NCBI GenBank assembly: GCA_963792585.1
Contig: CAWBWI010000001.1
Location: 1,536,001-1,600,000, forward strand
DNA length: 64,000 bases
From: Candidatus Eiseniibacteriota bacterium
GTDB taxonomy: Bacteria; Eisenbacteria; RBG-16-71-46; CAIMUX01; VGJL01
Direction of reading: 5' to 3'
Positions 21,014 to 37,729 of the stretch are shown in pieces (positions within the stretch are counted from its first letter, which is position 1; every line of letters starts with the position of its first letter). The notes below the pieces were generated by a model. It was given only the letters and a program-made list of their open reading frames with translations. It was not told where the DNA came from and made no database searches. The position numbers were made by a program, and so were the translations under genes.

Positions 21014-22039
21014 TCACCCTCCCAACACCTGGTTGTACATATCCGTCAGGTGGATCGACGCGACGCACTGCGCCGAGCAGCGTCCGCAACCGACGCAGGC
21101 GCTGCGCCCGTACTTCTCGAACTGGAAGACCTCTTTCTTGAAGAGCCGATGCCGTTGCCGGTGGGCCGGCTTCCCGCGGAAGTTCTCTCCCCCCGCGACG
21201 ACGGCGAATTCCGGGCTCTGGCAACTGTCCCAGAGTCTGCAGCGATGCCCTTCGTTCAGATCGAAGGAGACCTCGTCCGTCGTGTCGAAGCAGTAGCAGG
21301 TCGGACAGACCATCGTGCAGGTCTCGCATGAAAGACAGCGGCGTCCGATCGCTTCCCAGAGCAGGTCGTCGTATGCTTCCTTGAGCGCACTCGGGAGGCG
21401 GTTGACCGGCCCTGTGAGACGCGGCTTGAAGCTCGCGGCCTGCATCTCGCGCATCTTGCCCAGGGCTTCCCGATCGGCAGGAGTCGCCGGCTTGAGACAG
21501 CCGAGGCCCTCGATCATCGCCTCCCCCGCCGCGGTGCGCGTGAAGATGAAGTAGCGGTCGCCCAGATCGACCAGCAGCAGGTCATAGCCCCACTCGACGC
21601 GGTAGGTCCCCTTGTCGAAGCAGAGGTTGTACGCCCCGCAAGGCCGGGCGCACTCCAGGGCGATGATCCGGGCGCCGGCCCGCCGTGCGAGGTAATTCGC
21701 ATCCTGCGGGCTGTCGGAGAAGATCTCGTCGAGGATGTTGATCCCCTGCACGTCGCACGGGTGTACGCCCAGAAGCACGAGCGGCTGGGCCTCCACGACC
21801 TCTTGCGTCGCCTTCACGTCGTCCCGCCGGAAGCGCACGAGGGCTTCGTGGTGAGGGAAGAGCTGGCGGGCGGGGGGCAGAACCGTTGTCGGATACTCGA
21901 GGGCGAGTTCCTCCGGATCGCGAATCTCGTCGAAGACATGCTGGGTGTCCTTGCGCTTGGGTCCGATCACGCGGCTCGTTTTCTGGAGCTCGCGGACGAG
22001 CGCAGGCAGATCCAGCTTGGAAAGCACGAGGGTCTTCAT
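21014..22039 (-). CDS. hydB: Group 3b hydrogenase beta subunit (AsrA-like Fe-S protein)
   Basis: GVHPCD, CLSCETCTMVCPTCYCF, WDSC, CVGCGRCSAQC. Confidence 0.92.
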   Translation of the reverse strand: MKTLVLSKLDLPALVRELQKTSRVIGPKRKDTQHVFDEIRDPEELALEYPTTVLPPARQLFPHHEALVRFRRDDVKATQEVVEAQPLVLLGVHPCDVQGINILDEIFSDSPQDANYLARRAGARIIALECARPCGAYNLCFDKGTYRVEWGYDLLLVDLGDRYFIFTRTAAGEAMIEGLGCLKPATPADREALGKMREMQAASFKPRLTGPVNRLPSALKEAYDDLLWEAIGRRCLSCETCTMVCPTCYCFDTTDEVSFDLNEGHRCRLWDSCQSPEFAVVAGGENFRGKPAHRQRHRLFKKEVFQFEKYGRSACVGCGRCSAQCVASIHLTDMYNQVLGG

Positions 22040-22067
22040 GATTGCGAACGCCCCCCTTTCAAAGGCC

Positions 22068-22376: not shown

Positions 22377-22636
22377 AAGTGAACAACTTCACGAAATGAC
22401 TCTAAGCCAATATAATACCGCCTGTTACGCCTCTCATCGATGTCGGTGAAACTACCCGATTGGACGCATCATTGTAACGTTCCGCTGCAACTGTACCGGA
22501 CCGAAACAAGCGACTCCGTCCGGGTGTAAAAGTTCGACTTTTCCCGCCCCAATAGGCGTCAGGAGGGGACTTCACCGATCCGGCAGGGGATAGGGGTCGT
22601 TCGGAGCGGGAAAGTGCGGTGAAATTGCAGAAGATC

Positions 22637-22747: not shown

Positions 22748-24604
22748 ATGGACGCGACGGCCGCTGCGTACGTGATCTGCGGTTCCTGTGGGTGTGGGTG
22801 CGGTTTCCATCTCGAGGGTGGGCGTGACGGACCGTCCGGCGTCGTTCCCAGCCCTGGCCACCCGGCCAGCTTCGGCAGGCTCTGCCGCCGGGGCTGGAAC
22901 TCCCTCCAGCCGTTGCGCGACCCGGCGCGGATTCGCGGGCCGCTCACGCGCGGGAAGGCCGGTCCCCAGTCCGCCTCATGGGCGACGGCGATCGCAGCGG
23001 TCGCGAGCGGCCTGCGCGACCGAAGTCCTCAGGAAACGGGGCTGATTCTCTCCCCCACCTCGTCCAACGAGGCCCTCTTCCTGGCATCGAAATTCGCCCG
23101 AACGATCCTCCGGACACCGAACATCGATTTTCCCGGCCGGCACGCCACGGCTCCCGTCCGCGTGCTCTCCTCGCGTCTCGGCGAAACACTCTGCACCTTG
23201 GAGGAGATCGAAGGCGCCGATCTGATCCTGGCCATCGGTCTGGGCGATGGAAGCCGAAGTCCCCAGGTGGTTCCCGTGATCTGGCGCGCGATCCGCCGAG
23301 GCATTCCCGTCATCGCGATCGACGGCTGGCAAACCGACCTCTTTTCCGAGGCCGCGGAAACCCTGACCCCCCGTCCACATACCGACTATGAATGGATCGA
23401 GGCGGTGGGAAGCGTCCTCACCCCGCATTTCGCGGGAGGCCGTAGCCCTGCGGACGCGGCCCGCGGCGCCGACATGCGACCCGAGTCGATCACGGCGATC
23501 GCGAATCGGATCGAGAAGGCAACGAGGATCGCCTTCGTAATCGACACAACCTCGCACGGGAGGCTGCAAGACGGCCGCAGCGTGCAGTCCTTCGCGGCCC
23601 TCCTCGTGCTTCTGCGGGGGTCGAAGGACTGGATCGGACTCCTGCCGATCTTCGAGAGATGCAATACGCTCGGCGCGCTCGATATGGGCGCGGCGCCCGG
23701 GGCGGGAACCGGCAAGGGACCGCGCGTCGGCTCGGGTCCGGGACTCGCGGATATGATCGAGTCGGCGGAGAAGGGCGACTTGAAGTCGATGCTCCTCGTC
23801 GGGGACCTCGATTCGTGGGGACTCATCGGCTCCGGTCGCATCCAGGCGGCCCTCGGGCGTCTCGAGTTTCTCGCGGTCGCGAGCGGCTTCCCGACGTGGG
23901 CGACCGAGATCGCCCATGTGGTGTTGCCGCGACCGATCGCCGGCGAGGTCGAGGGCAGCTACACGAGCACGGAGGGACGCGTGCAGGTCACTGCGCCGTA
24001 CGTGGCATCCTCCGCACCCCAGGAGTGGAGGATCTTCGCGGATCTCACGCGGGCGCTCGGCGGAGAAGGGTCCTACGGGTCGATCGCCGACGTGCGTGAG
24101 GAGATTGCGCGCACGATTCCCGAGTACGCTCCCCTGGCCGCGGGCGAATCGAGCTTCCTGCGGACATTCTGGGAGATCATCCCGGTTCCACTCGACGCCG
24201 CGATCGAGCCGGTCCCCGCCCTCCCGGTCGACGCGGACCATCCGTTCCTGCTGGCCGTGGAGCGGACCTATCTGCCATTCGCGAAGGACACGACCTTGCT
24301 GCACTCGCCGATCCTCCGGCGCGAGATGGCGATCCTCCCCGCGGAACCTCACGTCTTCATCCACCCCGAGGATGCCAAGGGCGCGGCGCTGCGGGAAGGC
24401 CACCGCGCGGTCCTGGAGTCGTCCCGGGGGCGGTGGAGCGCACGGGTTCTCCTTCGGGAGGATGTTCCGCTCCACAGGGTCATTCTCCCGGAGACATTTC
24501 ACGAGGATGCCGCCGGAGTGCTCGGCGTGCGTCCGCGGGATGCGCTGACGGGGGCGCCGCTCTATCCGGCCGTACCGATCTCCCTCGTCGCGGAACGCCG
24601 CTAG
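22748..24604 (+). CDS. FdhF/NuoG-like molybdopterin-oxidoreductase-fold protein with N-terminal [4Fe-4S], lacking Mo ligand residues
   Basis: CGSCGCGC...LCRRG; SNEALFLASKFARTILRTPNID; NTLGALDMG; TEIAHVVLP; EGSYTSTEGRVQ; IHPEDA C-terminal domain. Confidence 0.85.
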   Translation: MDATAAAYVICGSCGCGCGFHLEGGRDGPSGVVPSPGHPASFGRLCRRGWNSLQPLRDPARIRGPLTRGKAGPQSASWATAIAAVASGLRDRSPQETGLILSPTSSNEALFLASKFARTILRTPNIDFPGRHATAPVRVLSSRLGETLCTLEEIEGADLILAIGLGDGSRSPQVVPVIWRAIRRGIPVIAIDGWQTDLFSEAAETLTPRPHTDYEWIEAVGSVLTPHFAGGRSPADAARGADMRPESITAIANRIEKATRIAFVIDTTSHGRLQDGRSVQSFAALLVLLRGSKDWIGLLPIFERCNTLGALDMGAAPGAGTGKGPRVGSGPGLADMIESAEKGDLKSMLLVGDLDSWGLIGSGRIQAALGRLEFLAVASGFPTWATEIAHVVLPRPIAGEVEGSYTSTEGRVQVTAPYVASSAPQEWRIFADLTRALGGEGSYGSIADVREEIARTIPEYAPLAAGESSFLRTFWEIIPVPLDAAIEPVPALPVDADHPFLLAVERTYLPFAKDTTLLHSPILRREMAILPAEPHVFIHPEDAKGAALREGHRAVLESSRGRWSARVLLREDVPLHRVILPETFHEDAAGVLGVRPRDALTGAPLYPAVPISLVAERR

Positions 24605-24611
24605 GGAAGGG

Positions 24612-25667
24612 GTGCCGACGATGCCAAATCACCCTGCCTGGAGACTGGACAAGAGCCGGATACCCGACTTCCTGGATCGGCTCGCCGTGCCGGTGGCGCT
24701 CCCGGTCGACATCGGCGGAGGGGAGATCAGCTATCGGATCCGCGCGGACGGGGCAGGGCCGGTCGAGGGCTACCGTAACAGCGCCATCTCCCCCGTCCGT
24801 CACGCCTATCCGCAGTCGCAGGTCCTGTGGCGGTACCGGCTCAAGCCCGAGCCCGAAGTGCAAAGCCCGCCGGCTCCCTTCGAGATGGCGATCTTTGGGG
24901 TCCGGTCATGCGACGTGAAGGCATTTCGGTATCTCGAGTCGTTCTTCGGGAGACCGCCGGCCGACACGCCGTTCGTCGAGGCCGCGTCCCGAATCCTGCT
25001 GGTAAGCGTCGCCTGCCACGAGCCGGGCGAGAACTGCTTCTGCGTCTGCTGCGACGCGGGTCCGTCGCTCGATGAATCTTTCGACATTCAGCTGACCGAC
25101 CTGGGCTCGTTCTATCGCATGGAGGCGGCGAGTCCGAAGGGAGCCGCCGCCGCGGAGCGCGTCGCATCCGCCCTGGAGCCTTCCCCGGTGGCCGATCGCG
25201 AAGAGGCGCGGGCACTGCGTGAGGCGACACTGGCCAAGTTCTCGATCACCTCGCACATGGCCACCGGCGTCCGCAAGACGACATCGCGCAAGGCGCCCGA
25301 GGAGATCTGGCGGCGGCTTGCCGCGCGCTGCATCGAGTGCGGCGGATGCGCCCTGGTCTGCCCGATGTGCACCTGCTTCGATGTCGCCGACCTGCGCGAG
25401 TCTCCCACGGAAGGCCGCAGGGAACGCACGCGGGACTGCTGCCAGTATTCCGGCTACTCACGGGAGGCGTCGGGTTTCAACCCGCGGCCCGACAAGGTTG
25501 CGCGATTCAAGAGACGCTTCAGCCACAAGCTCAGCTATTTCACCATGCTCGCCGAAGGGAGCCACGGCTGTGTCGGGTGCGGTCGCTGTGTCACCGCCTG
25601 TTTCGGCGGGGTCGACATGCCCGCGGTCGTCAATGCCTTGAGGACGGAGACGATTGTGACGGGCTGA
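24612..25667 (+). CDS. AsrA/HydB/FlxB-like Fe-S subunit
   Basis: FGVRSCD, CHEPGENCFCVCC, CIECGGCALVCPMCTCF, RDCC, CVGCGRCVTAC. Confidence 0.9.
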   Translation: MPTMPNHPAWRLDKSRIPDFLDRLAVPVALPVDIGGGEISYRIRADGAGPVEGYRNSAISPVRHAYPQSQVLWRYRLKPEPEVQSPPAPFEMAIFGVRSCDVKAFRYLESFFGRPPADTPFVEAASRILLVSVACHEPGENCFCVCCDAGPSLDESFDIQLTDLGSFYRMEAASPKGAAAAERVASALEPSPVADREEARALREATLAKFSITSHMATGVRKTTSRKAPEEIWRRLAARCIECGGCALVCPMCTCFDVADLRESPTEGRRERTRDCCQYSGYSREASGFNPRPDKVARFKRRFSHKLSYFTMLAEGSHGCVGCGRCVTACFGGVDMPAVVNALRTETIVTG

Positions 25668-25699
25668 CGGAAGTTGCATTTCGACGGGGGGAAAGAAGG

Positions 25700-26545
25700 A
25701 TGGCCGCAGACCTCTACGTCCCCGAACCGGCAAGAATCCTCGACGTCGTTGATGAGACCTCCGACGTCAAGACCTTCGCGCTCGACCTCGACGGGAACGG
25801 CGGAGGGGGGAGATTCCGGGCGCTTCCGGGTCAGTTCGTCGAGGTCTCCGTCGCCGGGTTCGGCGAGGTGCCGATCGGGATCGCCTCGTCCTACGATCGC
25901 GATGGCCGCTTCGACATCACCGTCCGCAAGGTGGGATGCGTCACCTCGGAGCTTCACCGGGCTCATCCGGGAGAAGTGATCGGGATCCGTGGTCCGCTCG
26001 GCAACTTCTTCCCATACTCCCTGGCCGAGGACCGGGAACCGATCTTCGTTGCGGGCGGCATCGGCCTTCCTCCCTTGCGATCCTTGATCCACTACATGCT
26101 CGCCCGGCCCAAGGAGTACCCGAAGATCACGATCCTCTACGGCGCGCGCACGCCGGCCGATCTCGTCTACAAAGAGGAGATCAAGCGCTGGCAGGCCGAC
26201 CCCAGGATCGATTTCCACGTGACGGTCGACATCGGGGACGATGCGTGGAGCGGCAAGGTCGGGCTGGTGACCGAGCTGTTCAACGGGATTCACCCCGACT
26301 ACCGGAATGCGATCGCCTTCGTCTGCGGTCCGCCGATCATGATCCACTACGTGATCCTGACCCTCCTGGACCTCGGCATGCCGCAGGAGATGATCATCTC
26401 GACGCTGGAGCGTCACATGAAGTGCGGCGTTGGAAAATGCGGCCATTGCGCGGTCGGTCACAAGTATGTCTGCACCGACGGGCCGGTGTTTTCCTACACC
26501 CAGATCAAGGAGCTTGAGTGGCAGAGCGGGGAGAATCCGACATGA
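25700..26545 (+). CDS. AsrB/HydG/FlxA-like FAD/NAD(P)-binding [2Fe-2S] subunit
   Basis: PGQFVEV, GEVPIGI, RGPLGN, AGGIGLPPLRS, CGPPIM, LERHMKCGVGKCGHC...CTDGPVF. Confidence 0.92.
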   Translation: MAADLYVPEPARILDVVDETSDVKTFALDLDGNGGGGRFRALPGQFVEVSVAGFGEVPIGIASSYDRDGRFDITVRKVGCVTSELHRAHPGEVIGIRGPLGNFFPYSLAEDREPIFVAGGIGLPPLRSLIHYMLARPKEYPKITILYGARTPADLVYKEEIKRWQADPRIDFHVTVDIGDDAWSGKVGLVTELFNGIHPDYRNAIAFVCGPPIMIHYVILTLLDLGMPQEMIISTLERHMKCGVGKCGHCAVGHKYVCTDGPVFSYTQIKELEWQSGENPT

Positions 26546-27012
26546 GTCGCGGTGTCGTAGTCGGGATCGGCAACGATCTGAGGTGCGACGACGGCGCCGG
26601 ACTGATCGCGGCCCGTGACCTCGCCGCCACCACAGGATCTCCCTTGATCCTCGCGGGCGAGGTCCCGGAGAACTATCTCGACGTGATTCGCGGGCATGCC
26701 CCGGAGTGGGTGCTGTTGGTCGATGCAACGGACTTCGGCGCGGACCCCGGCGAGACGGTGATCCTGCGGTTCGACGGAGGCAAGGCATCCGTCGCGGGGG
26801 CGCGATCTCCATCCACCCATCAACCCTCGTTGTCCATCCTGCGCCGTTACATCACGGAGGAGATGGGGGCGGAGGTCTGGCTCCTGGGGATCCAGCCACG
26901 GTGCGTCGACTTGGGTGCGCCGATGAGCGAGGAGGTGCGCGAGGCGATCCCGCGCGCCGTCCGAATCGGTTGCGACTGGATGCAATGGCGGTCGCTCATG
27001 ACGGAGGTGTGA
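26542..27012 (+). CDS. hycI: Hydrogenase maturation endopeptidase, HycI type
   Basis: GIGNDLRCDDGAG, GEVPENY, VDATDFG, PSTH, LGIQP. Confidence 0.88.
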   Translation: MSRGVVVGIGNDLRCDDGAGLIAARDLAATTGSPLILAGEVPENYLDVIRGHAPEWVLLVDATDFGADPGETVILRFDGGKASVAGARSPSTHQPSLSILRRYITEEMGAEVWLLGIQPRCVDLGAPMSEEVREAIPRAVRIGCDWMQWRSLMTEV

Positions 27013-27016
27013 GGTC

Positions 27017-28489
27017 GTGGAAAACTCGACGACGGCCCTCTTCATCATCCCTCCCCTGCTCTGCGCGATCGGCGCGCTGCTCATCCCCTTCATGCGACGC
27101 GGAGCCCGTTGGCTTGCGACGGCGGCAGTCGGCGCGGCCGCCCTGGTCGGAATCGGACTGATTGCGTCCGTCTTTCCCCGGTCATCGTCCGTCGAGTGGA
27201 CGGCGATCCCGTGGCTTCCGGTCCCGGCCACGGTCGGCGTGCGGATCGATCCCCTGAGCACCCTGGTGCTCTTCATCGTCCTCCTGGTCGGCTTCCTCGT
27301 CGTTCTCTTTTCGACCGCATATGTGAGCCCGAAGAACCACGACCACCCGACGAAGCGCGGGCAGCGACGTTACTACTTCTGGCTGCTGCTCTTCATCGCG
27401 TCGATGATCGGAGTCGTGATCTCACCGAACCTCTTCCAGATGTTCATCTTCTGGGAGATGACGACCATCTGCTCATGGGCGCTGATCTCGTTCTACGACA
27501 CTCCGAAGTCCCTCGCCGCCGGATACAAGGCGCTCTTGATGACCCACATCGGGGGCCTCTTCCTGATGACCGGGATCGTGCTGCTGTACGTACGGACCCA
27601 CTCGTTCGCGTTCGAGGCGTTGAACGCACTCGCGCACCCCGCGCTCACATGGTTCTTCATCCTCGTCCTGGTGGGCGCCTGGGCGAAGGCCGCGCAGGGA
27701 CCCTTCTACACGTGGCTTCCCGACGCAATGGAGGCGCCGACCCCGGTGAGCGCCTACCTCCATGCCGCGGCGATGGTGAAGGCGGGCGTCTACCTGGTCG
27801 CCAGGCTGGTTCTCTCCTGCACCCCGGAAACGAGGCAGAGCCTCGCGCAGCACGGCGTGCCGACCCTGATGGCGATCGTCGCGCTGGCGACGATGTTCAT
27901 GGGGGTCTACCTCTTCTTCTTCCAGGACGAGTTGAAGAAGCTCCTGGCCCTATCGACGATCACCCACCTTTCCTACATGCTCGCGGGGAGCGCGCTGGGA
28001 CTCTGGGGGGCGTGGGGAAGTTTCCAGGGCGGGGTCCTCCACATCGCGGCGCACGCGGCCGGCAAGGCCCTCCTCTTCCTCTCGGTCGGCGCGCTGGCGT
28101 TCTTCTCCGGCAGCAAGAGAATTTCCGAGCTCTCGGGGGTCGGCGTCAAACTTCCCCTCGTTGCGATCGGTTTCTTCGTGGGGGCCTTCACGGTGACCGG
28201 TTTGCCGCCCTTCGGCGGGTTCTTCAGCAAGCTGCTGATCATCGGGGGGGCCTTCTCGCTGGGCGGCTTCGGCGCCGTGATCGGCGCGCTGCTCTTGATC
28301 GAGAGCGTCATCGCCTTCGCCTGGTTCCTCTGGGTAGGGCAGAAGGTCTTCTTCGGCCGTCTATCCCCCGTCGCGGCCACGATCGGCACCTCTTCCACCC
28401 CGATGGGGATCGCCCTGACCGTCCTGATCATCCTCTGCCTGATCGTGACGTTGATCGGCATGCCGATGGTCCAGCAACTCCGGCCCTAG
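27017..28489 (+). CDS. hyfD: Antiporter-like membrane subunit, HyfD-like (NuoL/MrpA family)
   Basis: Multi-TM; FWEMTTICSWALI; WLPDAMEAPTPVSAYLHAAAMVKAG. Confidence 0.8.
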   Translation: MENSTTALFIIPPLLCAIGALLIPFMRRGARWLATAAVGAAALVGIGLIASVFPRSSSVEWTAIPWLPVPATVGVRIDPLSTLVLFIVLLVGFLVVLFSTAYVSPKNHDHPTKRGQRRYYFWLLLFIASMIGVVISPNLFQMFIFWEMTTICSWALISFYDTPKSLAAGYKALLMTHIGGLFLMTGIVLLYVRTHSFAFEALNALAHPALTWFFILVLVGAWAKAAQGPFYTWLPDAMEAPTPVSAYLHAAAMVKAGVYLVARLVLSCTPETRQSLAQHGVPTLMAIVALATMFMGVYLFFFQDELKKLLALSTITHLSYMLAGSALGLWGAWGSFQGGVLHIAAHAAGKALLFLSVGALAFFSGSKRISELSGVGVKLPLVAIGFFVGAFTVTGLPPFGGFFSKLLIIGGAFSLGGFGAVIGALLLIESVIAFAWFLWVGQKVFFGRLSPVAATIGTSSTPMGIALTVLIILCLIVTLIGMPMVQQLRP

Positions 28490-28504
28490 GGAGGCGCGAG
28501 AACG

Positions 28505-30562
28505 ATGGACATGACCGGCGGAATCATGGGCGTGCTGTTCCTGCTCCTCCTGGGGGCGATCGTCTCGACGCTCCTCGCGCCGCGGCGAAGAGCGTGCGCG
28601 TGGGTTTCGTTCGTATGGATCGGCGCGGCAGCCCTCTGGATCGCCGGAATCGCGATCCGGGCCCTCACGGGTCAAGGGGGAGAGCCCGGTCCGGCGCTCT
28701 TCCGGATCCCGGTGCTCAATACCTCACTCGTCTTCGGCGTCGATCCGCTATCGGCCATCTTCCTGCTCGTGATCGCCCTGCTGGCGGTCGTCTCGTCCCT
28801 CTACTCGGTCGGCTACATCACGCACCCCCACTATGGGAGGGAAAGCCTGACGCGGTATTATCCCTTCCTGTTCATCTTCCTGATGGGGATGATCGGCGTG
28901 GTCGTTTCCTGGGATCTCTTCCTGTTCCTCGTCTTCTGGGAGGTGATGACGCTCACCTCCTATTTCCTGGTCGTCTTCGAGACGGACAATCCGACGAGCC
29001 TCAAGGCCGGCTTCAAGTACTTCGTGATGACGCACATCGCGACCGCCTGCTTGATCGCGGCGTTCCTCGTGTTGCGCCTGCGAGGCGGGAGCTTCGGATT
29101 CGAAGCGGGGCGCGTCGCGCTCCTCTCCCTGGAGGGGACCAGGCCCCTTCTCCTGCACGGCGTGCTCGCGATGATGTTCATCGGTTTCGGTACCAAGGCG
29201 GCCATCTTCCCGCTCGGCGACTGGCTCCCCGACGCGCACCCTGCCGCGCCCTCGCCGATCAGTTGCCTCCTGTCGGGTGTGATGATCAAACTCGGCGTCT
29301 ACGGCCTCTTGCGGATCTTCTTCTGGATGGCCCCCTCAGCGCACACCTACACGGTCTGGGGCGGGATCATCGCGTTCTTCGGCGCGCTCTCCCTCTTCGT
29401 CGGAACGATGGAGGCCCTCGCGCAACACGACTCGAAGCGGCTGCTCGCGTTCCACAGCATGGGGCAGATGGGGTACATCTTCCTCGGGATCGGCATCGGA
29501 ATCGCTTTCCTGCGCGTCTCCCCCGCCCTCTCGGCGGCCGGCTTCATCGGGGGCCTCTACCATCTGGTCAACCACGCCTGCTTCAAGGGGCTCCTGTTCC
29601 TGAATGCGGGTTCCGCGCTGATCCGGGGAGGATCCCGGGAAATCGATCGACTCGGCGGCCTCGCGAAATACATGCCGCTGACGGCCGCGACGGCGATCAT
29701 CGCCTCCTTCGCCATCGCCGGCGTGCCGCCCCTGAACGGCTTCGGGAGCAAGTGGCTGATCTACCAGGCCACCCTCTTCTCGGGGCTTCAGTCGCCCGTC
29801 TACCTGCTCTACGGCGTGGCCGCCCTCTTCATCTCCGCGGTCACGCTCGCCTCCTTCGTCAAGTTCCTGGGAGCGATCTTCTACGGGCAACCATCTGCGA
29901 ACGTGACGCGCAGGGCCGGCGAAGGGCTCGCCGAAGTGCCCGGCACGATGGGCACGGCGCAGGTCATCCTCGCTGTTGCGTGCGTCGTCTTCGGCCTCTT
30001 CCCCTGGCTCGTCGTCGGGGCATCCCACCGCGCCATCGCGGCTGCGCGCCCCGAGTTCTTCCCGCCCTTCGCTGCGCTCTTCTCGGGGCGCCCGATGGGA
30101 ATCAACATCAACATCGGCGAGGGAGTGACCGGGAGCTGGAACGCGGTCCCGATCCTGCTGGCCTTCGCGGCCTGCTTCCTCATCCCTCTGTTCATCTACC
30201 GCAGCGCAAGGTCGAAGGTCCGCACCGTCGCGACGTGGAACTGCGGCGAGGAGCACAGACCGGATGAAATCCGCCACCTCGCCGGCGGTTACTACGGGAC
30301 CTTCCGCTCGCTGACGGCCCCTGTCGTGGGACGGATGCGCGCGTCCGGCTTCTATCCCAAGTGGCCGCGCCTGCGCGCCCGCGGCCTCGGCGCGATCCGT
30401 CCGGTGTTCGACTTCGACTTCGTCTATCGCAGCGTCGTGGGCGCCCTGATGAAGGCGTTCGGTTGGTTCAGCCACGTCCAGGTCGGCTATCCCCAGGTCT
30501 ACGTCCTCTGGATGGCCGCAGGGCTGGTCGTCGCGATGGTTCTGCTCTTCACTCTGCCCTGA
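28505..30562 (+). CDS. hyfB: Antiporter-like membrane subunit, HyfB/HycC-like
   Basis: FWEVMTLTSYFLV; WLPDAHPAAPSPISCLLSGVMIK; PPLNGFGSKW; WNCG near C-terminus. Confidence 0.82.
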   Translation: MDMTGGIMGVLFLLLLGAIVSTLLAPRRRACAWVSFVWIGAAALWIAGIAIRALTGQGGEPGPALFRIPVLNTSLVFGVDPLSAIFLLVIALLAVVSSLYSVGYITHPHYGRESLTRYYPFLFIFLMGMIGVVVSWDLFLFLVFWEVMTLTSYFLVVFETDNPTSLKAGFKYFVMTHIATACLIAAFLVLRLRGGSFGFEAGRVALLSLEGTRPLLLHGVLAMMFIGFGTKAAIFPLGDWLPDAHPAAPSPISCLLSGVMIKLGVYGLLRIFFWMAPSAHTYTVWGGIIAFFGALSLFVGTMEALAQHDSKRLLAFHSMGQMGYIFLGIGIGIAFLRVSPALSAAGFIGGLYHLVNHACFKGLLFLNAGSALIRGGSREIDRLGGLAKYMPLTAATAIIASFAIAGVPPLNGFGSKWLIYQATLFSGLQSPVYLLYGVAALFISAVTLASFVKFLGAIFYGQPSANVTRRAGEGLAEVPGTMGTAQVILAVACVVFGLFPWLVVGASHRAIAAARPEFFPPFAALFSGRPMGININIGEGVTGSWNAVPILLAFAACFLIPLFIYRSARSKVRTVATWNCGEEHRPDEIRHLAGGYYGTFRSLTAPVVGRMRASGFYPKWPRLRARGLGAIRPVFDFDFVYRSVVGALMKAFGWFSHVQVGYPQVYVLWMAAGLVVAMVLLFTLP

Positions 30563-30589
30563 CCCAACGGGCGGTAGGAGGTCCGAGCG

Positions 30590-32308
30590 GTGAACGGACA
30601 GCAACTGGCAGAGAAGGTTCGGGCAGGCCTCGGGGAGATCCTCCGTGACCTTCAGGAGCCCCGTCCCGGGCAGATCTACCTCACCGTGGCTCCGCGCGAC
30701 GTGCCGATTGCGGCGCGATGGGTCCACGAGTCTCTCGGCGCGCGCTTCCTGGTCACGATCGGCGCCGACACGAGAAAGATGGATGCCCCGCTGGCAGGCA
30801 GCGCCGGCATGGGTACGGTGCAGTCGTTCGTCGCCTCCCACGTCTTCTCCCTCGACGACGATCACCTCTTCCTGACCGTGCGCGCGGTCCTCGACCGCGA
30901 CAATCCGGAGATCCCGACGATCACCGATCTGATTCCGGGAGCGAAGTGGGCCGAGAACGAGATCCAGGATCTGCTCGGCGTCAAGGTCGCCGGCCACCCC
31001 GATCCGCGGCGACTCGTGCTTCCCGACGACTGGCCCGCCGGGATCTTCCCGCTCCGCAAGGAGGTGCCCTACAACCTGCGTCCGGATCCCGATCCGTCGA
31101 TGCGCCCCAAGATGAAGGAGCCGCCGGAGGGGACGACCGTCCTGCCGATCGGGCCGTTCTATCCCGTGCTGGAAGAGCCGGCCTACTTCCGCCTGTTCGT
31201 GCAGGGTGAGATCGTCGTGGATTGCGATTACCGGGGCTTCTACAACCATCGGGGGATCGAAAAGCTCGGCGACAGCACGCTGTCCTACAACCAGGTCCCC
31301 TTCCTGGCCGAGAGGATCTGCGGAATCTGCGGCTTCATCCACTCGACCTGCTACGTCGAGGCGACGGAGACGGCGATCGGGATCCGCGCTCCCCGCCGCG
31401 CCCGCGTCATCCGGACCCTCCTGCTCGAGATCGAGCGGATTCACAGCCACCTTCTCTGGCTCGGGATCGCCGGTCACATCATCGGCTTCGACACGGTGCT
31501 CATGCAGAGCTGGCGCATTCGCGAGCCGGTCATGTGGCTCTGCGAGACGATCACGGGTCACCGGAAGACGTACGGGATGAACCTGGTCGGCGGGGTGCGC
31601 AAGGACGTCCCCCGCGAGATGTACCAGGAGATCCTCGACGTGGTGGCAAAGATCGAGAAAGAATCGGTGGCGGTCGTGAAGGCGGTCGGCGGCGACTCAT
31701 CGCTCGCCGCGCGCCTGAAGAACGTCGGCACGCTCACGAACGAGGATGCCCGCGCGATCTGCGTCGTCGGCCCGACGGCCCGCGGGAGCGGGGTCGCCAT
31801 CGACGCCCGCGTCGACCATCCATACTCCGCATACGACGAGATCGTCCCGCTCAAAATGGTCCATCCCGAGGGAGACATCTGGGCCCGCACTATGGTCCGC
31901 TTGGACGAGCTCCTCGACTCGATCCGCCTGGTGCGCGAGTCGATCCGGATGCTCGCCGAGATGCCGCCCGGCGAGATCCGGCTCGAGATCGGAAATATCC
32001 CCGCCGGCCTGGAGGGGATGTGCGTGGTCGAGGCGCCCCGCGGCGAGGCGATCCACTACGTTCTCACCGGCGCCGACAACAGGCTCGAGCGCTGGCGCGT
32101 GCGGGCGCCGACCTATCCGAACCTGCAGGCGGTCCCCGTGATGATCAAGGGAGCGACGATCGCCGACGTTCCGATTTCGATCGGCAGCTACGACCCCTGC
32201 TTCTCGTGCACCGAGAGGATGGAGGTCGTGGACCTGACATCCGGAGCGGTCACGGTCTTCACCTCCGACGAACTCACGCGGCGCTCCAGAGGGGAGGCCC
32301 GATCATGA
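30590..32308 (+). CDS. hycE: Group 4 [NiFe] hydrogenase large subunit (HycE/HyfG, NuoCD-like fusion)
   Basis: GHPDPRRLVLPDDWP, YNHRGIEK, ERICGICGFIHS (L1), VEAPRGE, DPCFSCTER (L2) plus C-terminal extension. Confidence 0.92.
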   Translation: MNGQQLAEKVRAGLGEILRDLQEPRPGQIYLTVAPRDVPIAARWVHESLGARFLVTIGADTRKMDAPLAGSAGMGTVQSFVASHVFSLDDDHLFLTVRAVLDRDNPEIPTITDLIPGAKWAENEIQDLLGVKVAGHPDPRRLVLPDDWPAGIFPLRKEVPYNLRPDPDPSMRPKMKEPPEGTTVLPIGPFYPVLEEPAYFRLFVQGEIVVDCDYRGFYNHRGIEKLGDSTLSYNQVPFLAERICGICGFIHSTCYVEATETAIGIRAPRRARVIRTLLLEIERIHSHLLWLGIAGHIIGFDTVLMQSWRIREPVMWLCETITGHRKTYGMNLVGGVRKDVPREMYQEILDVVAKIEKESVAVVKAVGGDSSLAARLKNVGTLTNEDARAICVVGPTARGSGVAIDARVDHPYSAYDEIVPLKMVHPEGDIWARTMVRLDELLDSIRLVRESIRMLAEMPPGEIRLEIGNIPAGLEGMCVVEAPRGEAIHYVLTGADNRLERWRVRAPTYPNLQAVPVMIKGATIADVPISIGSYDPCFSCTERMEVVDLTSGAVTVFTSDELTRRSRGEARS

Positions 32309-33222
32309 TCGCCTCCACGATTCTATTCGGCATCCTGAACGTCCTGCTCTGCCTGATCTGCGGTCCGCTCTTCGAGGGGGTATCCCGAAAGTACGTGAAG
32401 GCGAACATCGCCCACGGGCGCAAGGGGCCTCTGACGGGGGCGATGCAACCTTTCTGGGACATCGCGAAGCTGCTCGGGAAGGAAGACCTGGAGACCGGGG
32501 GGACGCTCCAGCGGCTGGCACCGATCCTCTGCATGGCATCGGTCCTGACCGCCGCCCTTCTGACACCCGTCGGCGGACGGCCGCCCTTCGAGTTCGCCGG
32601 GGACTTCATCGTCCTGCTCTATTTCCTGAGCCTGGCTTCCGTCGCCATCATGCTGGGCGCGATGGCGGGGGGCTCGTCGTACACCATGACCGGTGGGCTA
32701 CGGGAGATCATGAGCCTACTGCTCGTCGATCTCGTCGTCGCCGTCTCCTTTCTCACTGTCATGATCAACACCCGCACGCTCCGGATCGGCGACTGGCTCG
32801 CCTGGCAGGGATCGATGGGGCCGAGCTTCTCGATGATCCTGGCCATGATCCCGATCCTGCTCATCCTGCCGGCGCAGTTCGGGAAGATCCCGTTCGATGC
32901 CCCCGAGGCCGAGCAGGAGTTGATGGGCGGACCCTTCTCTGAGATGTCGGGACGCAAGCTGGCGATCTTCAAGTGGGCGCTGTACGCGAAGCAGTTCGTC
33001 GTGAGCGCCCTCTTCGTGCAGGTATTCGTCCCATGGCCGGTCACCGGCCTCCCGGCAGTTGACATCATCCTGACCCTGGTCAAGATCCTGATCGTCTTCA
33101 TCCTCGTCGGCGTCGTCGAGGTGCTGATGCCGAGGCTCAAGATCAATCAGGCATTGCAGTACTACGCCTCCGTCTTCGTGATCGGCGCGATGGCCATCGT
33201 CATGGCGTACCTGGGCGCGTGA
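32305..33222 (+). CDS. hycD: Membrane subunit HycD/HyfC (NuoH-like)
   Basis: GRKGP...QPFWDIAKLLGKE; GKIPFDAPEAEQELMGGPFSEMSG. Confidence 0.9.
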   Translation: MIASTILFGILNVLLCLICGPLFEGVSRKYVKANIAHGRKGPLTGAMQPFWDIAKLLGKEDLETGGTLQRLAPILCMASVLTAALLTPVGGRPPFEFAGDFIVLLYFLSLASVAIMLGAMAGGSSYTMTGGLREIMSLLLVDLVVAVSFLTVMINTRTLRIGDWLAWQGSMGPSFSMILAMIPILLILPAQFGKIPFDAPEAEQELMGGPFSEMSGRKLAIFKWALYAKQFVVSALFVQVFVPWPVTGLPAVDIILTLVKILIVFILVGVVEVLMPRLKINQALQYYASVFVIGAMAIVMAYLGA

Positions 33223-33241
33223 GACCGGAAGAGGTGACGCG

Positions 33242-33679
33242 ATGATCGAGAGCAAGTTTCGGGAGCTGATGATCGCCCTGAGGGGCGGCGTGGTGACGAT
33301 GGATTATCCATTGGGACCGGCGCCGCCTCTGCCGGAGCGGTTCCGGGGAAAGCTCGAACTCGAACTCGGCCGCTGCATCGGCTGCGGCGGCTGCGCCGCC
33401 GTCTGCCCCGCCCGGTTGATCGTCCCCCGCGATCCGGATCCCGCCTGGCGCACGATCGACATCTATCGCGAGCGGTGCACTTATTGCGGCCGGTGCGAGG
33501 ACGTATGTCAGGAGGGGGCGATCCGACTCACCCACGAGTTCGAACTGGCCACGAATGACAAGGCGGATTTGACCGATCACCTGCAGGTCTTCATGGCGAC
33601 GTGCGGGCGTTGCGGGCGCTGTTTCAAGCCCGAGGAACCCCTGGACCGGATCCGGACGACCGGCCGGATCACGGTTTAG
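33242..33679 (+). CDS. hycF: 2x[4Fe-4S] subunit HycF/HyfH (NuoI-like)
   Basis: RFRGK, CIGCGGCAAVCP, CTYCGRCEDVC, extra CGRCGRC. Confidence 0.9.
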   Translation: MIESKFRELMIALRGGVVTMDYPLGPAPPLPERFRGKLELELGRCIGCGGCAAVCPARLIVPRDPDPAWRTIDIYRERCTYCGRCEDVCQEGAIRLTHEFELATNDKADLTDHLQVFMATCGRCGRCFKPEEPLDRIRTTGRITV

Positions 33680-33692
33680 GAAGGAGGAGTCG

Positions 33693-34367
33693 ATGGGCCT
33701 GGCGACGGGCGCAAGCGGGTTGGTGGTCACCCTCATGGTGATCCACCTCCTGGCCTCGATGATCGTGGCCGAGATGAAGAACCTGCGGAGTGCGGTCTAT
33801 GCCCTGGTTCTTCAGTCGCTCACCCTCTGCTTCGTGATCCTCCTCCTGGGCTGGGGCAACGGGTGGATGATCGCGTGGTTCTTCTGGGCGGTGGCGACCA
33901 AGGTCTTCTTCCTTCCCTGGCTCTTCCTCAGAACGATGCGGGTTCTCCCCCAGCGTGAAGAGGCGCCGATCACGGGCGGTTGGGTCTCGTTTGCGGTGGT
34001 TGCGGCATCGGTCCTGGTGATCTACCAGCTGCTGCACACCTACCTCGCGACCCTGGTTCCCACGATGGCGACGGCGGCCGAACCCACCCGTTCGAGCCTC
34101 GCGATGGCATTCACGATTTTCGTCCTCGGCATCTACGTTTGCGTGGCGCGGCGGGACCTGGTGAAGGTGATCATCGGCGTGGTGCTCCTGGAAAACGGAG
34201 CCCACCTGGCGCTCATCTCGCTCGTCCCAGGGCGCGCCGAGACGGCGATCCTCGGGATCGCGACGAACGTCGCCCTCTCGGCCTGGCTGCTCCTCTACTT
34301 CGGGCAGGTCATGTACAGGGTGCTCGGGACCACCGATACCCTCAAACTCTCCGAGCTGAAAAGGTAG
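33693..34367 (+). CDS. hyfE: Membrane subunit HyfE
   Basis: Multi-TM; LVLQS, ATKVFFLP, IIGVVLLENGAHL. Confidence 0.85.
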   Translation: MGLATGASGLVVTLMVIHLLASMIVAEMKNLRSAVYALVLQSLTLCFVILLLGWGNGWMIAWFFWAVATKVFFLPWLFLRTMRVLPQREEAPITGGWVSFAVVAASVLVIYQLLHTYLATLVPTMATAAEPTRSSLAMAFTIFVLGIYVCVARRDLVKVIIGVVLLENGAHLALISLVPGRAETAILGIATNVALSAWLLLYFGQVMYRVLGTTDTLKLSELKR

Positions 34368-34374
34368 GTGCGAC

Positions 34375-35904
34375 GTGGCCGCGTCCAACCTGGAAGTCTC
34401 GTTTCTCCCCCTCCTGGTGGTTGCGATCCCGTTGCTCTTCGGCTGCTTGTTGCTCCTGATGCGCCGCAGCGGCGGCAGGTATCACGGCCCGATCGCGTTG
34501 ATCGGCTTGAGCCTGACGTCCGTCGTGGCCCTGGGGATCGTGATCGAGGTCGGCAGGGGGCGCATCCTGACTTTGTGGGGGCAGAACTTCTACGTCGACG
34601 GACTGAGCGCCCTCATGCTGGTTCTCTCTTCGGGAATCGGGCTCGCGGTAGCCGTCTACTCGATCCCGTTCATTCCGACACGGCTTCTCGAGGCAGGCGA
34701 CACGGGCCGCAGGCTGTCGACGTACTACGGGCAGCTCCTGATCTTCCTGGCGATGATGAACTGGACATGCAGCACGAACAACATCGTGATGCTCTACGTG
34801 TCGCTGGAGCTCACGACTCTGGCGACCGCATTCCTTGTCATCTTCTACGGGAAACGCTCGAGTATCGAGGCCGGGTACAAGTACCTGATGCTGGTCACCG
34901 TGGGGATCCTGTGCGCCCTGATGGGCGTCGCGCTCATCTATTCCGCCGCGGCCGGGCTTCCCGGGGCGGAGACCCAGGGTCTTCACCTGCTCTGGATCTC
35001 GGACCTCGCCAAGGTGGCGCCGAAGATGGCCCCGAGCCTGGTCTTGCTCGCGAACGCGTTCCTGATCGCCGGATTCGGCACGAAGGCGGGGCTCGTCCCC
35101 TTCCATGCGTGGCTGCCCGACGCCCACGCCGAGGCCCCCGAACCGATCAGTGCGCTTCTCTCCGGGATCGTGATCAAGGTCGGCGCCTACGCGCTCGCCC
35201 GCACCATCACGATCTTCTCCCCGTCGTTCAACGCAATCGTGATCTTCGTGGCGATCATCGCCTCGGCAAGCATGATCTTCGGGATCCTGATGGCCCTGGT
35301 TCAGGACGACCTGAAGCGGATGCTCGCCTACTCGAGCGTGAGCCAGATCGGCTACATCGTGGAGGGACTCGGCCTCGGAACCTACCTCGGCCTCTACGGA
35401 GGACTCTTCCACCTCGTCAACCACACGCTGATCAAGGCGGAGATCTTCCTCGCCACCGGCGCGATCGTCTACGTCGCCGGAACGCGGAAAATCTCTCAGC
35501 TTGGCGGACTCGGGAGGAGGGCGCCGATCACCGGCGCGTGCTTCCTCGTCGGCGCGCTGGCGATCGGCGGGTTGCCGCCGTTCGGGGCGTTCATGAGCAA
35601 GTTCACGCTCTTCATCGCCGCGGCGGAACGGGGACTGATGTGGGCGGCCGTGATCGCGGTCTTCACGGGGCTCCTGACCGTCGCCTGTTTCGTGCGCGCG
35701 GCCTACAAGATCTTCTGGGGCGAGATCGCCCCGAACAGCGAGATGATCGTCGACGAGGTGGGCGAGGTTCCGCCTCTGATGTGGGGTGCGATGGCCGCGA
35801 TCGCGGTCGTGATCCTCACGCTCGGCGTCTACCCGCGGGTCGCCTATCCACTGCTCGACAATGCGACGCGCTGTATCCTGCGCGTGCTCGGCGGCACGGC
35901 GTAA
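34375..35904 (+). CDS. hyfF: Antiporter-like membrane subunit HyfF
   Basis: LELTTLATAFLV, EAGYKYL, GFGTKAGLVPFHAWLPDAHAEAP, KRMLAYSS. Confidence 0.85.
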   Translation: MAASNLEVSFLPLLVVAIPLLFGCLLLLMRRSGGRYHGPIALIGLSLTSVVALGIVIEVGRGRILTLWGQNFYVDGLSALMLVLSSGIGLAVAVYSIPFIPTRLLEAGDTGRRLSTYYGQLLIFLAMMNWTCSTNNIVMLYVSLELTTLATAFLVIFYGKRSSIEAGYKYLMLVTVGILCALMGVALIYSAAAGLPGAETQGLHLLWISDLAKVAPKMAPSLVLLANAFLIAGFGTKAGLVPFHAWLPDAHAEAPEPISALLSGIVIKVGAYALARTITIFSPSFNAIVIFVAIIASASMIFGILMALVQDDLKRMLAYSSVSQIGYIVEGLGLGTYLGLYGGLFHLVNHTLIKAEIFLATGAIVYVAGTRKISQLGGLGRRAPITGACFLVGALAIGGLPPFGAFMSKFTLFIAAAERGLMWAAVIAVFTGLLTVACFVRAAYKIFWGEIAPNSEMIVDEVGEVPPLMWGAMAAIAVVILTLGVYPRVAYPLLDNATRCILRVLGGTA

Positions 35905-35915
35905 GGAGGTGTGCT

Positions 35916-36419
35916 TTGTTCCGGATGCTCTATCAGAAGGCGTTCCCCAAGGCGTTGTGGGCATTCCACGCGAACTGCGGAGCCTGCAACGGATGCGACA
36001 TCGAGGTGATCAACGTGCTCACCCCGTACTATGACGCGGAGCGTTTCGGCATCAAGTTGGTCGCATCTCCCCGTCACGCCGACGTGATCGTCGTCAGTGG
36101 TCCGGTGACCCGGCAGGTCGCCCCCGCCCTGCGCAGGCTCTACGAGGCGACGCCGGATCCGAAGATCGTCCTGGCGGTAGGTTCCTGCGCAGTCGGAGGC
36201 GGGATGTGGTTCGACACCTACGCGACCCTCGGGGGAGTCGACCAGGTGCTCCCCGTCGACTACCACATCCCCGGTTGCCCGCCCCGTCCGGAGGCGATCC
36301 TGCACGGAGTCGCGGTGGCGCTCGGCCTCGCCCCCAAGAAGGTCTCGGGAAAGACGGAGAAGCAGGAACTGATGCCCGATCCGCCCGCGGAGAAGGCGCA
36401 TGGGGGGGCGTCGCGATGA
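35916..36419 (+). CDS. hycG: Group 4 hydrogenase small subunit HycG/HyfI (NuoB-like), TTG start
   Basis: AGGAGG 6 nt before TTG; CGACNGCDIE, SPRHAD, GSCA, IPGCPPRP. Confidence 0.92.
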   Translation: MFRMLYQKAFPKALWAFHANCGACNGCDIEVINVLTPYYDAERFGIKLVASPRHADVIVVSGPVTRQVAPALRRLYEATPDPKIVLAVGSCAVGGGMWFDTYATLGGVDQVLPVDYHIPGCPPRPEAILHGVAVALGLAPKKVSGKTEKQELMPDPPAEKAHGGASR

Positions 36420-37288
36420 GACCACGGATTCCGTGGGTGGTCATGATGGCGATCCCCGGCCTCTTCGGGATCGCCGGTCTGCTCGCGGGCGCCGGGTGCG
36501 GCCACCAGACGTCGTCCCCTCGACCGATCACGGTCAAGGTGATGGTCCTCCCCGACTACTCGCTCAATGTCATGGCCGCGCGGGTCGCGCCGCTCATCGC
36601 GCACCTGCAGAAATCCCTCGGCCCCCGTTACCGGGTCGAGTGGATCTCCTGCCCGTCGCCGGAGGCCTTCATGGCGACAGTGGAAAGGGAACGTCCCGAC
36701 GTGAGCCTGCAGGACGCTTTCCAGACCGCCTGGCTCATCCGCCTGCAGCAGGCCGAACCGATCCTGGGCGTGTTGATGCCCGACGGTGAGGGACGAACCC
36801 GAGGTCTGGTGATCACGGCAGCCGACGGAGACGTGCGCACGCTCGCGGACCTCGCCGGGAAGCGCGTCGCCATTGCCTCGCGGCGATCCTATCTGGGTTA
36901 CATCGCCCAGGCATCCATGATGGAGGCAACCGCGAACGTCCACGCCGGGTCGATCCACTTCGTGCCGGTTCGCTGGTCGGACCGGGTCGGGACCTGCATG
37001 GAACAGGGACGGGTCGAGGCGGGGTTCGTTTCCGAAGCGGACCTGGTCCCCCGCGCGCGCGTCCTGGCGCGGACCGAGCCGGTCCCCGCGTCCTGCGTCG
37101 CCACCTTTCCTCACACATCCGGGGAAGTCGCCGACGGCGTGAGACGGGCGCTGCAGGAGTTGGGCACGGGAGGGGTGGAGAACATCTCCGTCCTGCGGGG
37201 GCTCGGCATCCGAGGGTTCACGCCGATCGATGCTCAAGAGCGCGCGACGATCGTCCGTCTCGCCGAGAACGCGTCCGTTCCCTACTGA
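36416..37288 (+). CDS. PhnD/SsuA-like solute-binding lipoprotein
   Basis: Lipobox-like LLAGAGC; TLADLAGKRVAIAS..SYLGY; VLARTEPVP. Confidence 0.75.
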   Translation: MRPRIPWVVMMAIPGLFGIAGLLAGAGCGHQTSSPRPITVKVMVLPDYSLNVMAARVAPLIAHLQKSLGPRYRVEWISCPSPEAFMATVERERPDVSLQDAFQTAWLIRLQQAEPILGVLMPDGEGRTRGLVITAADGDVRTLADLAGKRVAIASRRSYLGYIAQASMMEATANVHAGSIHFVPVRWSDRVGTCMEQGRVEAGFVSEADLVPRARVLARTEPVPASCVATFPHTSGEVADGVRRALQELGTGGVENISVLRGLGIRGFTPIDAQERATIVRLAENASVPY

Positions 37289-37310
37289 GGACGGACGGGA
37301 GGATACCGTC

Positions 37311-37721
37311 ATGGCCGAAGGAGCGAAGATCCTGGTGATCGAGGATGACCCCGACTACCGCGCGGTGCTCGAGGAGATCCTCACGTCGGGCGGATATCGC
37401 GTCGTGACCGCATCCTCGGGAGAGGAAGGACTCCGGCGCGTCATGGAAGAGCGCCCCGACCTGATCATTCTCGACGTCATGATGGAGCGGACGATCAGCG
37501 GTTTCGAGGTGGCCAAGAAGATCAAGAACCTCTCGCCCGGCTCGCCGTATGCGGAGTTCGCACGCGTGCCGATCCTGATCCTGACCGCGATCCACCAGTC
37601 GACGATCTTCCGATTCCAGCCCGATGACGACTTCCTCCCCGTCGAGGCCTTCATGGAAAAGCCCCCCATCCGCGGCGAGGTCCTGAAGCAGGTGCGCGCC
37701 CTGCTGGCCGCTCCCCGATAG
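37311..37721 (+). CDS. Single-domain response regulator
   Basis: ILVIEDD, PDLIILDVMM, ILILTA, MEKP. Confidence 0.92.
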   Translation: MAEGAKILVIEDDPDYRAVLEEILTSGGYRVVTASSGEEGLRRVMEERPDLIILDVMMERTISGFEVAKKIKNLSPGSPYAEFARVPILILTAIHQSTIFRFQPDDDFLPVEAFMEKPPIRGEVLKQVRALLAAPR

Positions 37722-37729
37722 AGGGAACG

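Follow-up and report, generated by a model that had tools for sequence, protein, structure and literature searches.

A group 4 [NiFe] hydrogenase operon with a catalytically dead formate dehydrogenase and a possible NAD(H)-linked input module in Candidatus Eiseniibacteriota

Where do the electrons of a formate-hydrogenlyase-like hydrogenase come from, or go to, once its formate dehydrogenase (FDH) has lost its active site? This question is raised by an operon at positions 22748 to 36419 (+ strand) of a stretch of 64,000 nucleotides (nt) from Candidatus Eiseniibacteriota (GenBank assembly GCA_963792585.1, contig CAWBWI010000001.1, 1,536,001 to 1,600,000), which is here called the window. This operon holds the genes for an intact membrane-bound [NiFe] hydrogenase of group 4, a catalytically dead FdhF-like subunit and the flavin and Fe-S proteins AsrB and AsrA. 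To our knowledge, the electron donor of every characterised group 4 hydrogenase is formate, CO or ferredoxin (HydDB table); a member wired to NAD(H) would directly connect NADH, H2 and the proton gradient. The dead FdhF, with a flavin module in place of HycB, makes it likely that this operon links H2 to NADH and the proton gradient. The full reading, in which AsrB and AsrA are predicted from sequence to replace the HycB wire of a proton-coupled NAD(H):H2 oxidoreductase, stands in our judgement at about even chances.

By family match, the gene order is FdhF, AsrA/HydB, AsrB/HydG, HycI, HyfD, HyfB, HycE, HycD, HycF, HyfE, HyfF, HycG. All 12 open reading frames (ORFs) are open, on the + strand and without internal stops, with spacings of -4 to 32 nt, in agreement with a sequence-only reading of this DNA that had described one tight, frameshift-free operon in this order. 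That reading also saw a true [NiFe] enzyme with three antiporter-like subunits and not an Ehr complex, and both points hold. HycE has all four Ni-binding Cys (RICGIC at 242-247, DPCFSC at 535-540), followed by CTER and a 29-residue tail, which we take to resemble the processed tail of E. coli HycE. The small, 2x[4Fe-4S], NuoH-like and antiporter-like subunits and the protease HycI are also encoded, and the charged transmembrane Glu/Lys residues are intact in HyfD, HyfB and HyfF (motif search; one of five patterns missed HyfD). The argument turns on the following genes and motifs:

22748..24604, + strand: FdhF-like subunit, 618 amino acids (aa), FDH fold, with the N-terminal [4Fe-4S] motif CxxCxCxC...C but no longer the residues for the Mo ligand and for Moco binding
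23126..23149, + strand: degenerate active-site segment DFPGRHAT, with Ala133 at the Cys/Sec position (alignment)
24612..25667, + strand: AsrA / SHI-beta / FlxB-like Fe-S subunit, with ligands for three clusters and a spare Cys
25047..25049, + strand: AsrA Cys146, which may be the fourth ligand of a site between subunits; found in every group-4-linked AsrA and seldom in others
25700..26545, + strand: AsrB / SHI-gamma / FlxA-like FNR-family subunit, with FAD, NAD(P) and [2Fe-2S]/DHODB Fe-S domains and Asp177
33242..33679, + strand: HycF, 2x[4Fe-4S] subunit with a shortened C-terminus (family match, alignment)
33602..33622, + strand: HycF motif C121-x-R-C124-G-R-C127, replacing the CxxC...CxxC metal site of HycB-type HycF

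The FdhF-like subunit had been described as apparently dead, and the alignments bear this out. Ala, Thr and Phe occupy its Cys/Sec, His and Arg positions, respectively, with DFPGRHAT replacing the FDH motif DHCARL(C/U)H and PIFER replacing PLRGQ. The FdhF/Molybdopterin family match reaches 175 bits against a cut-off of 666, and the predicted fold (pLDDT 82.5) has a TM score of 0.80 to E. coli FdhF and 0.72 to NuoG. An alignment of 62 near-full-length homologues, leaving out fragments under 500-560 aa and the NuoG-like L006-L013, contained 22 FDHs treated as intact (9 HycB-linked, 10 soluble AsrAB-linked and 3 others). The Cys/Sec, His and Arg triad is found in 22/22 of these, including all 9 HycB-linked enzymes, versus 0/40 homologues from AsrAB-type loci; since 10 'soluble' and five 'dead' metagenome rows were binned partly by identity, the unbiased triad contrast is that between 26 AsrAB and 9 HycB loci anchored on HycE. 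Partial triads among the 40 comprise the Cys-His pair of L020, three cases of Arg only and one lone Cys in L024. The window subunit retains 69 of the 166 columns conserved across the 22 intact FDHs as well as all four N-terminal Fe-S Cys, and its homologues range from 141/166 (L020) down to 46, with lengths shrinking to ~520 aa. The Fe-S motif is their best-kept part; its fourth Cys is Ser or Phe in 6/40, which speaks for a scaffold rather than a third active site. A pattern search had scored the motif as absent from Fervidibacter-type FdhF, where the alignment shows that three Cys stay and only the fourth is altered.

Could an intact partner be supplied from elsewhere? As the sequence-only reading had noted, HycB/HyfA is not in the operon, and the best genome-wide matches to HycB reach ~30-32% over most of the length of HycB. 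The source genome (G000, 84% complete) yielded no intact FDH, no FdhD and no close HycB; a frameshifted NuoEF/GltD-fused cluster at 1.62 Mb on its contig C1 could not be judged. FdhD and intact FDH were not found in the 99% complete genome G004 either, and among 10 carriers in the window's phylum six are without FdhD and nine have MoaC.

What accompanies such hydrogenases across genomes was assessed with a scan on HycE (84 relatives, 80 retained). AsrA and/or AsrB is encoded at 43 of the 80 loci and a HycB-type ferredoxin at 15; none has both. Neither module was seen at 22, of which 21 have < 5 kb of upstream DNA and one (L023) has 10 kb and an incomplete operon. The earlier proposal of an AsrAB/FNR-type input module in place of HycB is upheld in gene content, and docking of the module on the hydrogenase is its predicted part. 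Gene order is conserved across loci, as had been expected; all 12 genes are present in at least 10 loci, and antiporter number varies from one to three. The nearest HycE relative, L016, is from Ca. Eisenbacteria (75%), and AsrAB-type hosts include Eisenbacteria, Acidobacteriota, Gemmatimonadota, Armatimonadota, Fervidibacterota, Spirochaetota, Aminicenantes and Edwardsbacteria; no isolate is named among the AsrAB-type HycE-scan records. In the reverse scan on AsrA, the best 80 of 565 loci comprised 15 linked to group 4, 9 with a dead FDH and no further class, 11 with an intact FDH, 26 of the Flx and 6 of the group 3b type, and 13 left unassigned; the first two classes took the highest ranks. 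Among the top 20 (L096-L115), 18 carry an FdhF-like gene whose motif is degenerate or was not read, and L104 and L107 are truncated upstream. Within the window's phylum, a HycF of the CxxCxxC type occurs in 10/206 genomes, and the FdhF-like/AsrA/AsrB trio is present in 4/4 of those fetched with enough upstream DNA. The AsrAB-type complex occurs in many uncultured phyla, in whose genomes its genes probably carry the labels 'formate dehydrogenase' and 'sulfite reductase'.

Two variants were seen along the way. Operon genes are widely spaced at Edwardsbacteria/UBP2 loci (L075-L077, L082, L083, L087, L089, L092), and the gaps at L075 and L089 hold small inserted genes that presumably encode four-helix-bundle, nucleotidyltransferase/HEPN and cNMP-binding proteins. 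At ten loci (L025, L031, L034, L044-L047, L049, L052, L053) the split HycE ORFs are not frameshifts; TGA encodes selenocysteine (RICGIU), a variant reported in the available text of PMC13582414.

How, then, might the module be wired to the core? HycF carries CxxC-x30-CxxC at HycB loci and CxRCxRC, without the distal pair, at AsrAB loci, with C127 of the CxxCxxC motif in 45/45 AsrAB-type versus 0/15 HycB-type sequences. AsrA C146, the fifth Cys of the N-terminal cluster region, is present in 54/54 group-4-linked proteins versus 2/43 Flx, 3b and soluble-FDH relatives; one of the two exceptions is the window's own HydB, which is without C144. Across HycE, HycG, HycF, AsrB and AsrA, these are the only class-specific invariant Cys. 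Together, HycF C121/C124/C127 and AsrA C146 offer 3+1 ligands, which suggests a shared [4Fe-4S] cluster or single-metal clasp between the two subunits. In a quick HycE tree (83 rows), AsrAB and HycB types are interleaved, and the HycF type tracks the module in 60/60 scored loci. L139, a single locus of another layout that keeps a HycB/CooF gene, has an AsrA without C146, which fits the AsrA-HycF link. Complex prediction for AsrA and HycF from 34-row alignments gave a median of 0.25 (runs 0.41/0.10/0.25) against a mark of 0.32, and is read neither as support for binding nor as evidence against it. FdhF-like Cys16 was considered as HycF's fourth ligand and is disfavoured, being missing in 12/39 and present in soluble enzymes without HycF. 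The HycF CxxCxxC and AsrA CFCxC motifs provide a simple marker of this complex type.

At the far end of the module, full FAD/NAD domains and [2Fe-2S] Cys are kept in 43/43 AsrB sequences. Asp177 (43/43) falls on the Asp of the NADH-type proteins PyrK and NfnA, whereas the NADPH-type SHI gamma has Thr-Arg there. AsrAB is not a duplicate of the adjacent group 3b genes, which is ruled out by identities of 27% and 42%.

On the preferred reading, electrons from NADH would enter the FAD and [2Fe-2S] of AsrB, cross three [4Fe-4S] clusters of AsrA and reach the putative site of HycF C121/C124/C127 and the spare AsrA Cys, from which they would pass through the two HycF clusters and HycG to Ni-Fe. The FdhF-like subunit would serve as a scaffold without cofactor, descended from a soluble FDH-AsrA-AsrB enzyme, its cluster lying off-path like N7 of complex I NuoG. 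As for the coupled ion, the source ATP synthase c subunit is without what we take to be the Na+ motif.

Direction is constrained by energetics. Ech and MBH couple H2 evolution to proton export, and this polarity was assumed for the coupling, with a 150 mV gradient and assumed potentials. Computed on this basis, NADH-driven H2 evolution exporting one H+ per 2 electrons needs < 0.02-0.2 Pa H2. The same stoichiometry is permitted to ~10 Pa with NADPH at a ratio of 50 and to ~66 Pa with NADH plus ferredoxin, and uncoupled evolution from NADH is feasible up to 7-66 Pa. The sequence-only reading had proposed an ion-pumping enzyme evolving H2 from NAD(P)H at low H2 pressure, or its reversal driven by ion motive force. 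With NADH as donor, the first is thermodynamically implausible given the limit of < 0.2 Pa, which makes H2 to NAD+ with proton influx the likely direction unless the enzyme is confurcating. The second fits the energetics better: H2 oxidation would reduce NAD+, pushed by proton influx, and would be workable at a few Pa H2 or less. Whether a simple NADH-linked enzyme with Ech-type polarity runs this way is, in our estimate, an evenly balanced call.

Several observations weigh against this reading. An intact-looking FDH is encoded elsewhere in the genomes of 3/10 carriers, and the FdhF-like cluster is retained in 33/40 homologues (of the rest, 6 are changed and 1 is truncated), a degree of conservation that a mere relic might not require. 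The HycF/AsrA co-variation amounts to only 2 changes in 2 independent pairs (sign test p 0.5), group-4-linked AsrA may be one clade, and L023 has a CxxCxxC HycF with AsrAB not found within 10 kb of its incomplete operon. The Asp motif of AsrB also occurs in nearly all Flx, 3b and soluble-FDH relatives; being family-wide, it says little for NADH, whose choice is only likely. Complex I and oxidases in the hosts make proton-consuming H2 uptake odd, and Rnf/Nqr is present in 8/10 carriers, for which reason a role in replacing Rnf was rejected (Rnf was not found in the source genome, G000). Finally, in the published model as described in the available text of PMC13582414, a three-way branch terminates at the Fdh-like protein.

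That branch fits an ion-pumping confurcating hydrogenase, close to what PMC13582414 proposes in the text available, in which NADH at AsrB and a low-potential donor such as ferredoxin at the FdhF-like [4Fe-4S] cluster would together yield H2 and proton export. We regard this as unlikely, yet as the alternative to take most seriously. It is the NADH-based case where H2 evolution with pumping is feasible (to ~66 Pa, one H+ per 2 electrons), most homologues retain the FdhF-like cluster and adjacent Lys/Arg, and a 2-oxoacid:ferredoxin oxidoreductase-like cluster lies in the same window. The operon, however, has no known bifurcating flavin site and no HdrA, NfnB, EtfB or HydB-type subunit, and 6/40 homologues from otherwise intact operons have lost the fourth Cys of the cluster that would be the entry point. 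FNR-type FAD subunits (NfnA, FlxA, HydG) are moreover the non-bifurcating NAD(P) ends in known systems. In its boldest form, the HycF/AsrA cluster would wire an FNR-type NADH module to the group 4 core, the dead FdhF cluster would be a ferredoxin port, and NADH plus reduced ferredoxin would yield H2 and a gradient without a known bifurcating flavin. Such a confurcating pump of new build is a decidedly tentative proposal; if true, it would be a second, independent complex-I-like N-module assembly around a dead formate dehydrogenase, living intermediates included.

Somewhat less probable again is an NADPH-linked or loosely coupled fermentative H2 vent. It would release H2 from NAD(P)H while pumping hardly or not at all, as does E. 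coli formate hydrogenlyase 1 (FHL-1), or would pump about one proton with NADPH at low H2. The calculated limits (~10 Pa with NADPH at a ratio of 50, 7-66 Pa for uncoupled NADH) would allow it, antiporter count varies from one to three among loci, and the closest solved AsrB relative is SHI-gamma. Yet Asp177 stands where SHI has Thr-Arg, the neighbouring operon already provides an uncoupled NAD(P)-linked enzyme of group 3b, and three antiporter subunits are retained with their charged residues intact.

It seems very doubtful that the hydrogenase core is an Ech-like pump of the usual ferredoxin-linked kind, with the FdhF-like/AsrA/AsrB trio forming a soluble diaphorase of its own or, as has been proposed for HunAB, an adaptor for ferredoxin input. 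The trio does occur with intact FDH as a soluble operon in 10 loci, and AsrAB is read as a ferredoxin input in the available text of the Hun paper (bioRxiv 10.1101/536078); however, the HycF C-terminus switches exactly with module type in all 60 scored loci, AsrA gains its Cys only when group-4-linked, and all 43 AsrB sequences keep the FAD/NAD domains and [2Fe-2S] Cys. Least credible of all is an FdhF-like subunit in which a Mo/W cofactor, held with no protein ligand, still serves to oxidise another substrate: some DMSO-reductase-family enzymes have no protein ligand, the fold is intact (TM 0.80) and 9/10 carriers have MoaC, but the cofactor-site motifs (PLRGQ, domain IV GR..H/Y..G.MT) are lost differently by lineage, and the homologues, which retain 46-141 of 166 FDH columns at lengths down to ~520 aa, show no new catalytic motif in common.

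Where could a dead FdhF-AsrA-AsrB trio have come from? Ten loci (L116, L120-L122, L125-L128, L147, L156) encode an intact FdhF, often with Sec, alongside AsrA and mostly also AsrB-type subunits; no group 4 genes were seen in the locus DNA covered. These operons likely encode NAD(P)-linked formate dehydrogenases with an FNR-type module instead of NuoEF. Their FdhF carries an extra Cys in CxxCxCxC, which is shared by 10/10 soluble FDH-AsrAB enzymes and 27/40 dead FdhF-like proteins versus 0/12 other FDHs. L020 is intermediate, with Cys and His kept, Arg lost, 141/166 FDH columns, AsrAB and a CxxCxxC HycF, and its gene order, asrB-fdhF-asrA, is that of the soluble operons. A soluble NAD(P)-linked FDH likely docked on a 4b core, after which its Mo site decayed. 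The FdhF tree (FastTree) was not used as evidence of origin owing to long-branch warnings. Intact soluble FDH-AsrAB enzymes, L020 and the shrunken relics form a series that offers a natural parallel to complex I gaining a cofactor-less FDH domain.

The remaining features of the operon are:

22388..22416, + strand: sigma70-like promoter consensus TTCACG-17-TATAAT, upstream of the group 4 operon (consensus match only)
26542..27012, + strand: HycI maturation protease (family match)
27017..28489, + strand: HyfD antiporter-like subunit (family match over cut-off)
28505..30562, + strand: HyfB/HycC antiporter-like subunit (family match)
30590..32308, + strand: HycE large subunit, a NuoC-NuoD fusion (NuoC, NuoD and NiFe domains; RICGIC, DPCFSC, 29-aa tail)
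32305..33222, + strand: HycD/HyfC NuoH-like membrane subunit (family match)
33693..34367, + strand: HyfE membrane subunit (family match)
34375..35904, + strand: HyfF antiporter-like subunit (family match)
35916..36419, + strand: HycG small subunit, four Cys retained; start TTG 35916 or ATG 35925

The promoter scan found two sites against a shuffle mean of 0.1, the second overlapping on the opposite strand and facing a group 3b hydrogenase operon. This operon (hydBGDA, with protease and hypF; window 14996-22042, - strand), missed by the sequence-only reading, is complete and lies ~700 nt upstream, so that the two operons diverge out of one common intergenic region. The back-to-back layout recurs in L016, and 3b genes flank L018 and L025. 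Side by side, uncoupled and coupled NAD(P)-H2 enzymes could form an H2-cycling transhydrogenase, if their nucleotides differ. For maturation, HycI is encoded in the operon, hypF in the window and hypD, in two pieces, on contig C2. Downstream, and also missed, a PhnD-like periplasmic binding-protein gene overlaps the hycG stop and is followed by a receiver protein and a membrane His kinase (36416-39091, + strand); a PhnD-like gene occurs in or after the operon at 15/80 HycE loci. The 2-oxoacid:ferredoxin oxidoreductase-like genes (10466-13013, - strand) show apparent frameshifts and groEL (1478-2986) also looks frameshifted, which suggests long-read assembly errors elsewhere in the source genome. 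That genome further encodes, on C1 (1.14, 1.26, 1.48, 1.62 and 0.42 Mb) and other contigs, a full complex I, a second Nuo cluster, an Ehr-like cluster, Hdr-Flx and the frameshifted NuoEF/GltD-fused cluster, as well as a third NiFe large subunit (C3) and three heme-copper oxidase-family loci. RNA-library contigs of a ~95% similar strain (four runs) cover the region evenly, intergenic stretch included, and DNA carry-over is therefore possible.

How does this operon compare with known systems? The architecture is not new. The sequence-only reading had counted an earlier published description among the refutations of its proposal, and one exists: the AsrAB-linked group 4b layout has been published from genome surveys, and the complex type is known in silico. 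In the available text of PMC13582414 (2026), about half of the Fdh proteins in group 4b clusters are without Cys/Sec, these co-occur with SHI-beta/gamma homologues, and an AlphaFold model assembles a complex of this type; NADP(H) bifurcation is proposed, with the other substrate unknown. Those [NiFe]/[NiFeSe] clusters have the same subunit set (dead Fdh, SHI-beta/gamma, HyfE, HyfC, several antiporters), and nothing essential in the text available sets them apart from the window's enzyme, which is of the Cys type. Its Table S1 lists L020 and L090 as 4b (HycE identities of 56% and 53%, same tree), and five other contig prefixes are not in that table. The terms 'HycF' and 'intersubunit' have 0 matches in its main text, and its model figure may show the site. 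The same reading knew of no characterised complex of such composition, and within the literature searched all published descriptions are indeed in silico. The search, with most subscription journals outside it, returned no experiment on an AsrAB-linked 4b complex and no mention of the HycF motif, and a Moorella-type precedent was not found in the available part of PMC8578096.

Related AsrAB types have also been described in silico, namely the 'enigmatic' Saganbacteria RX5A hydrogenase (PMC6349859) and the Hun complex of group 4g (bioRxiv 10.1101/536078), both linked to AsrAB with an extra ferredoxin. As far as the available texts go, both place AsrA/AsrB-like genes next to a group 4 hydrogenase that has antiporters, as the window does, and some cases include a molybdopterin-domain protein of no clear class. 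Unlike the window, RX5A has retained a ferredoxin of the CooF/HycB kind and Hun has a further Fe-S subunit, HunC; both have a separate subunit layout. Hun is defined by CGIC-CYCC, HunC and an Mrp Na+ module, whereas the window has DPCFSC and no HunC/HycB or Mnh set in the operon. L139 and L168 resemble Hun and RX5A, with asrA, asrB and a very degenerate Mo-domain protein, followed in L139 by cooF/hycB, nuoH, nuoB and nuoC.

E. coli FHL-1/FHL-2 (PDB 7Z0T; PMC9474812, in the parts available) has in common the HycE/G/F/D core, HycI, HyfB/D/F/E and an FdhF-fold subunit. Its catalytic FdhF, HycB/HyfA ferredoxin and C-terminal CxxC...CxxC site of HycF are all missing from the window, whose FdhF is without Sec, His and Arg and whose operon adds an NAD(P)-binding module. 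The four-Cys metal site of E. coli HycF, CxxC-x34-CPxC, holds a single metal near FdhF and HycB (PMC9474812); in the window it is CxxCxxC, with the distal pair absent. SHI (group 3b, PDB 9NEZ) and Flx/Asr modules supply the homologues of AsrA and AsrB (SHI beta and gamma, E 2e-29 and 5e-50), which in the window stand beside membrane group 4 core genes, with the extra Cys146 in AsrA. To the published layout, the present analysis adds the predicted HycF-AsrA link, the FdhF decay series and the thermodynamic limit. The comparison extends to complex I NuoEFG, where NADH input to a HycE/F/G-like core likewise goes with a cofactor-less FDH-fold domain bearing an N7/A1-type cluster. The window differs in having an FNR-type FAD module, not NuoF/FMN, and a Ni-Fe site, not a quinone site, and its N-module-like arrangement would be independent of complex I in origin.

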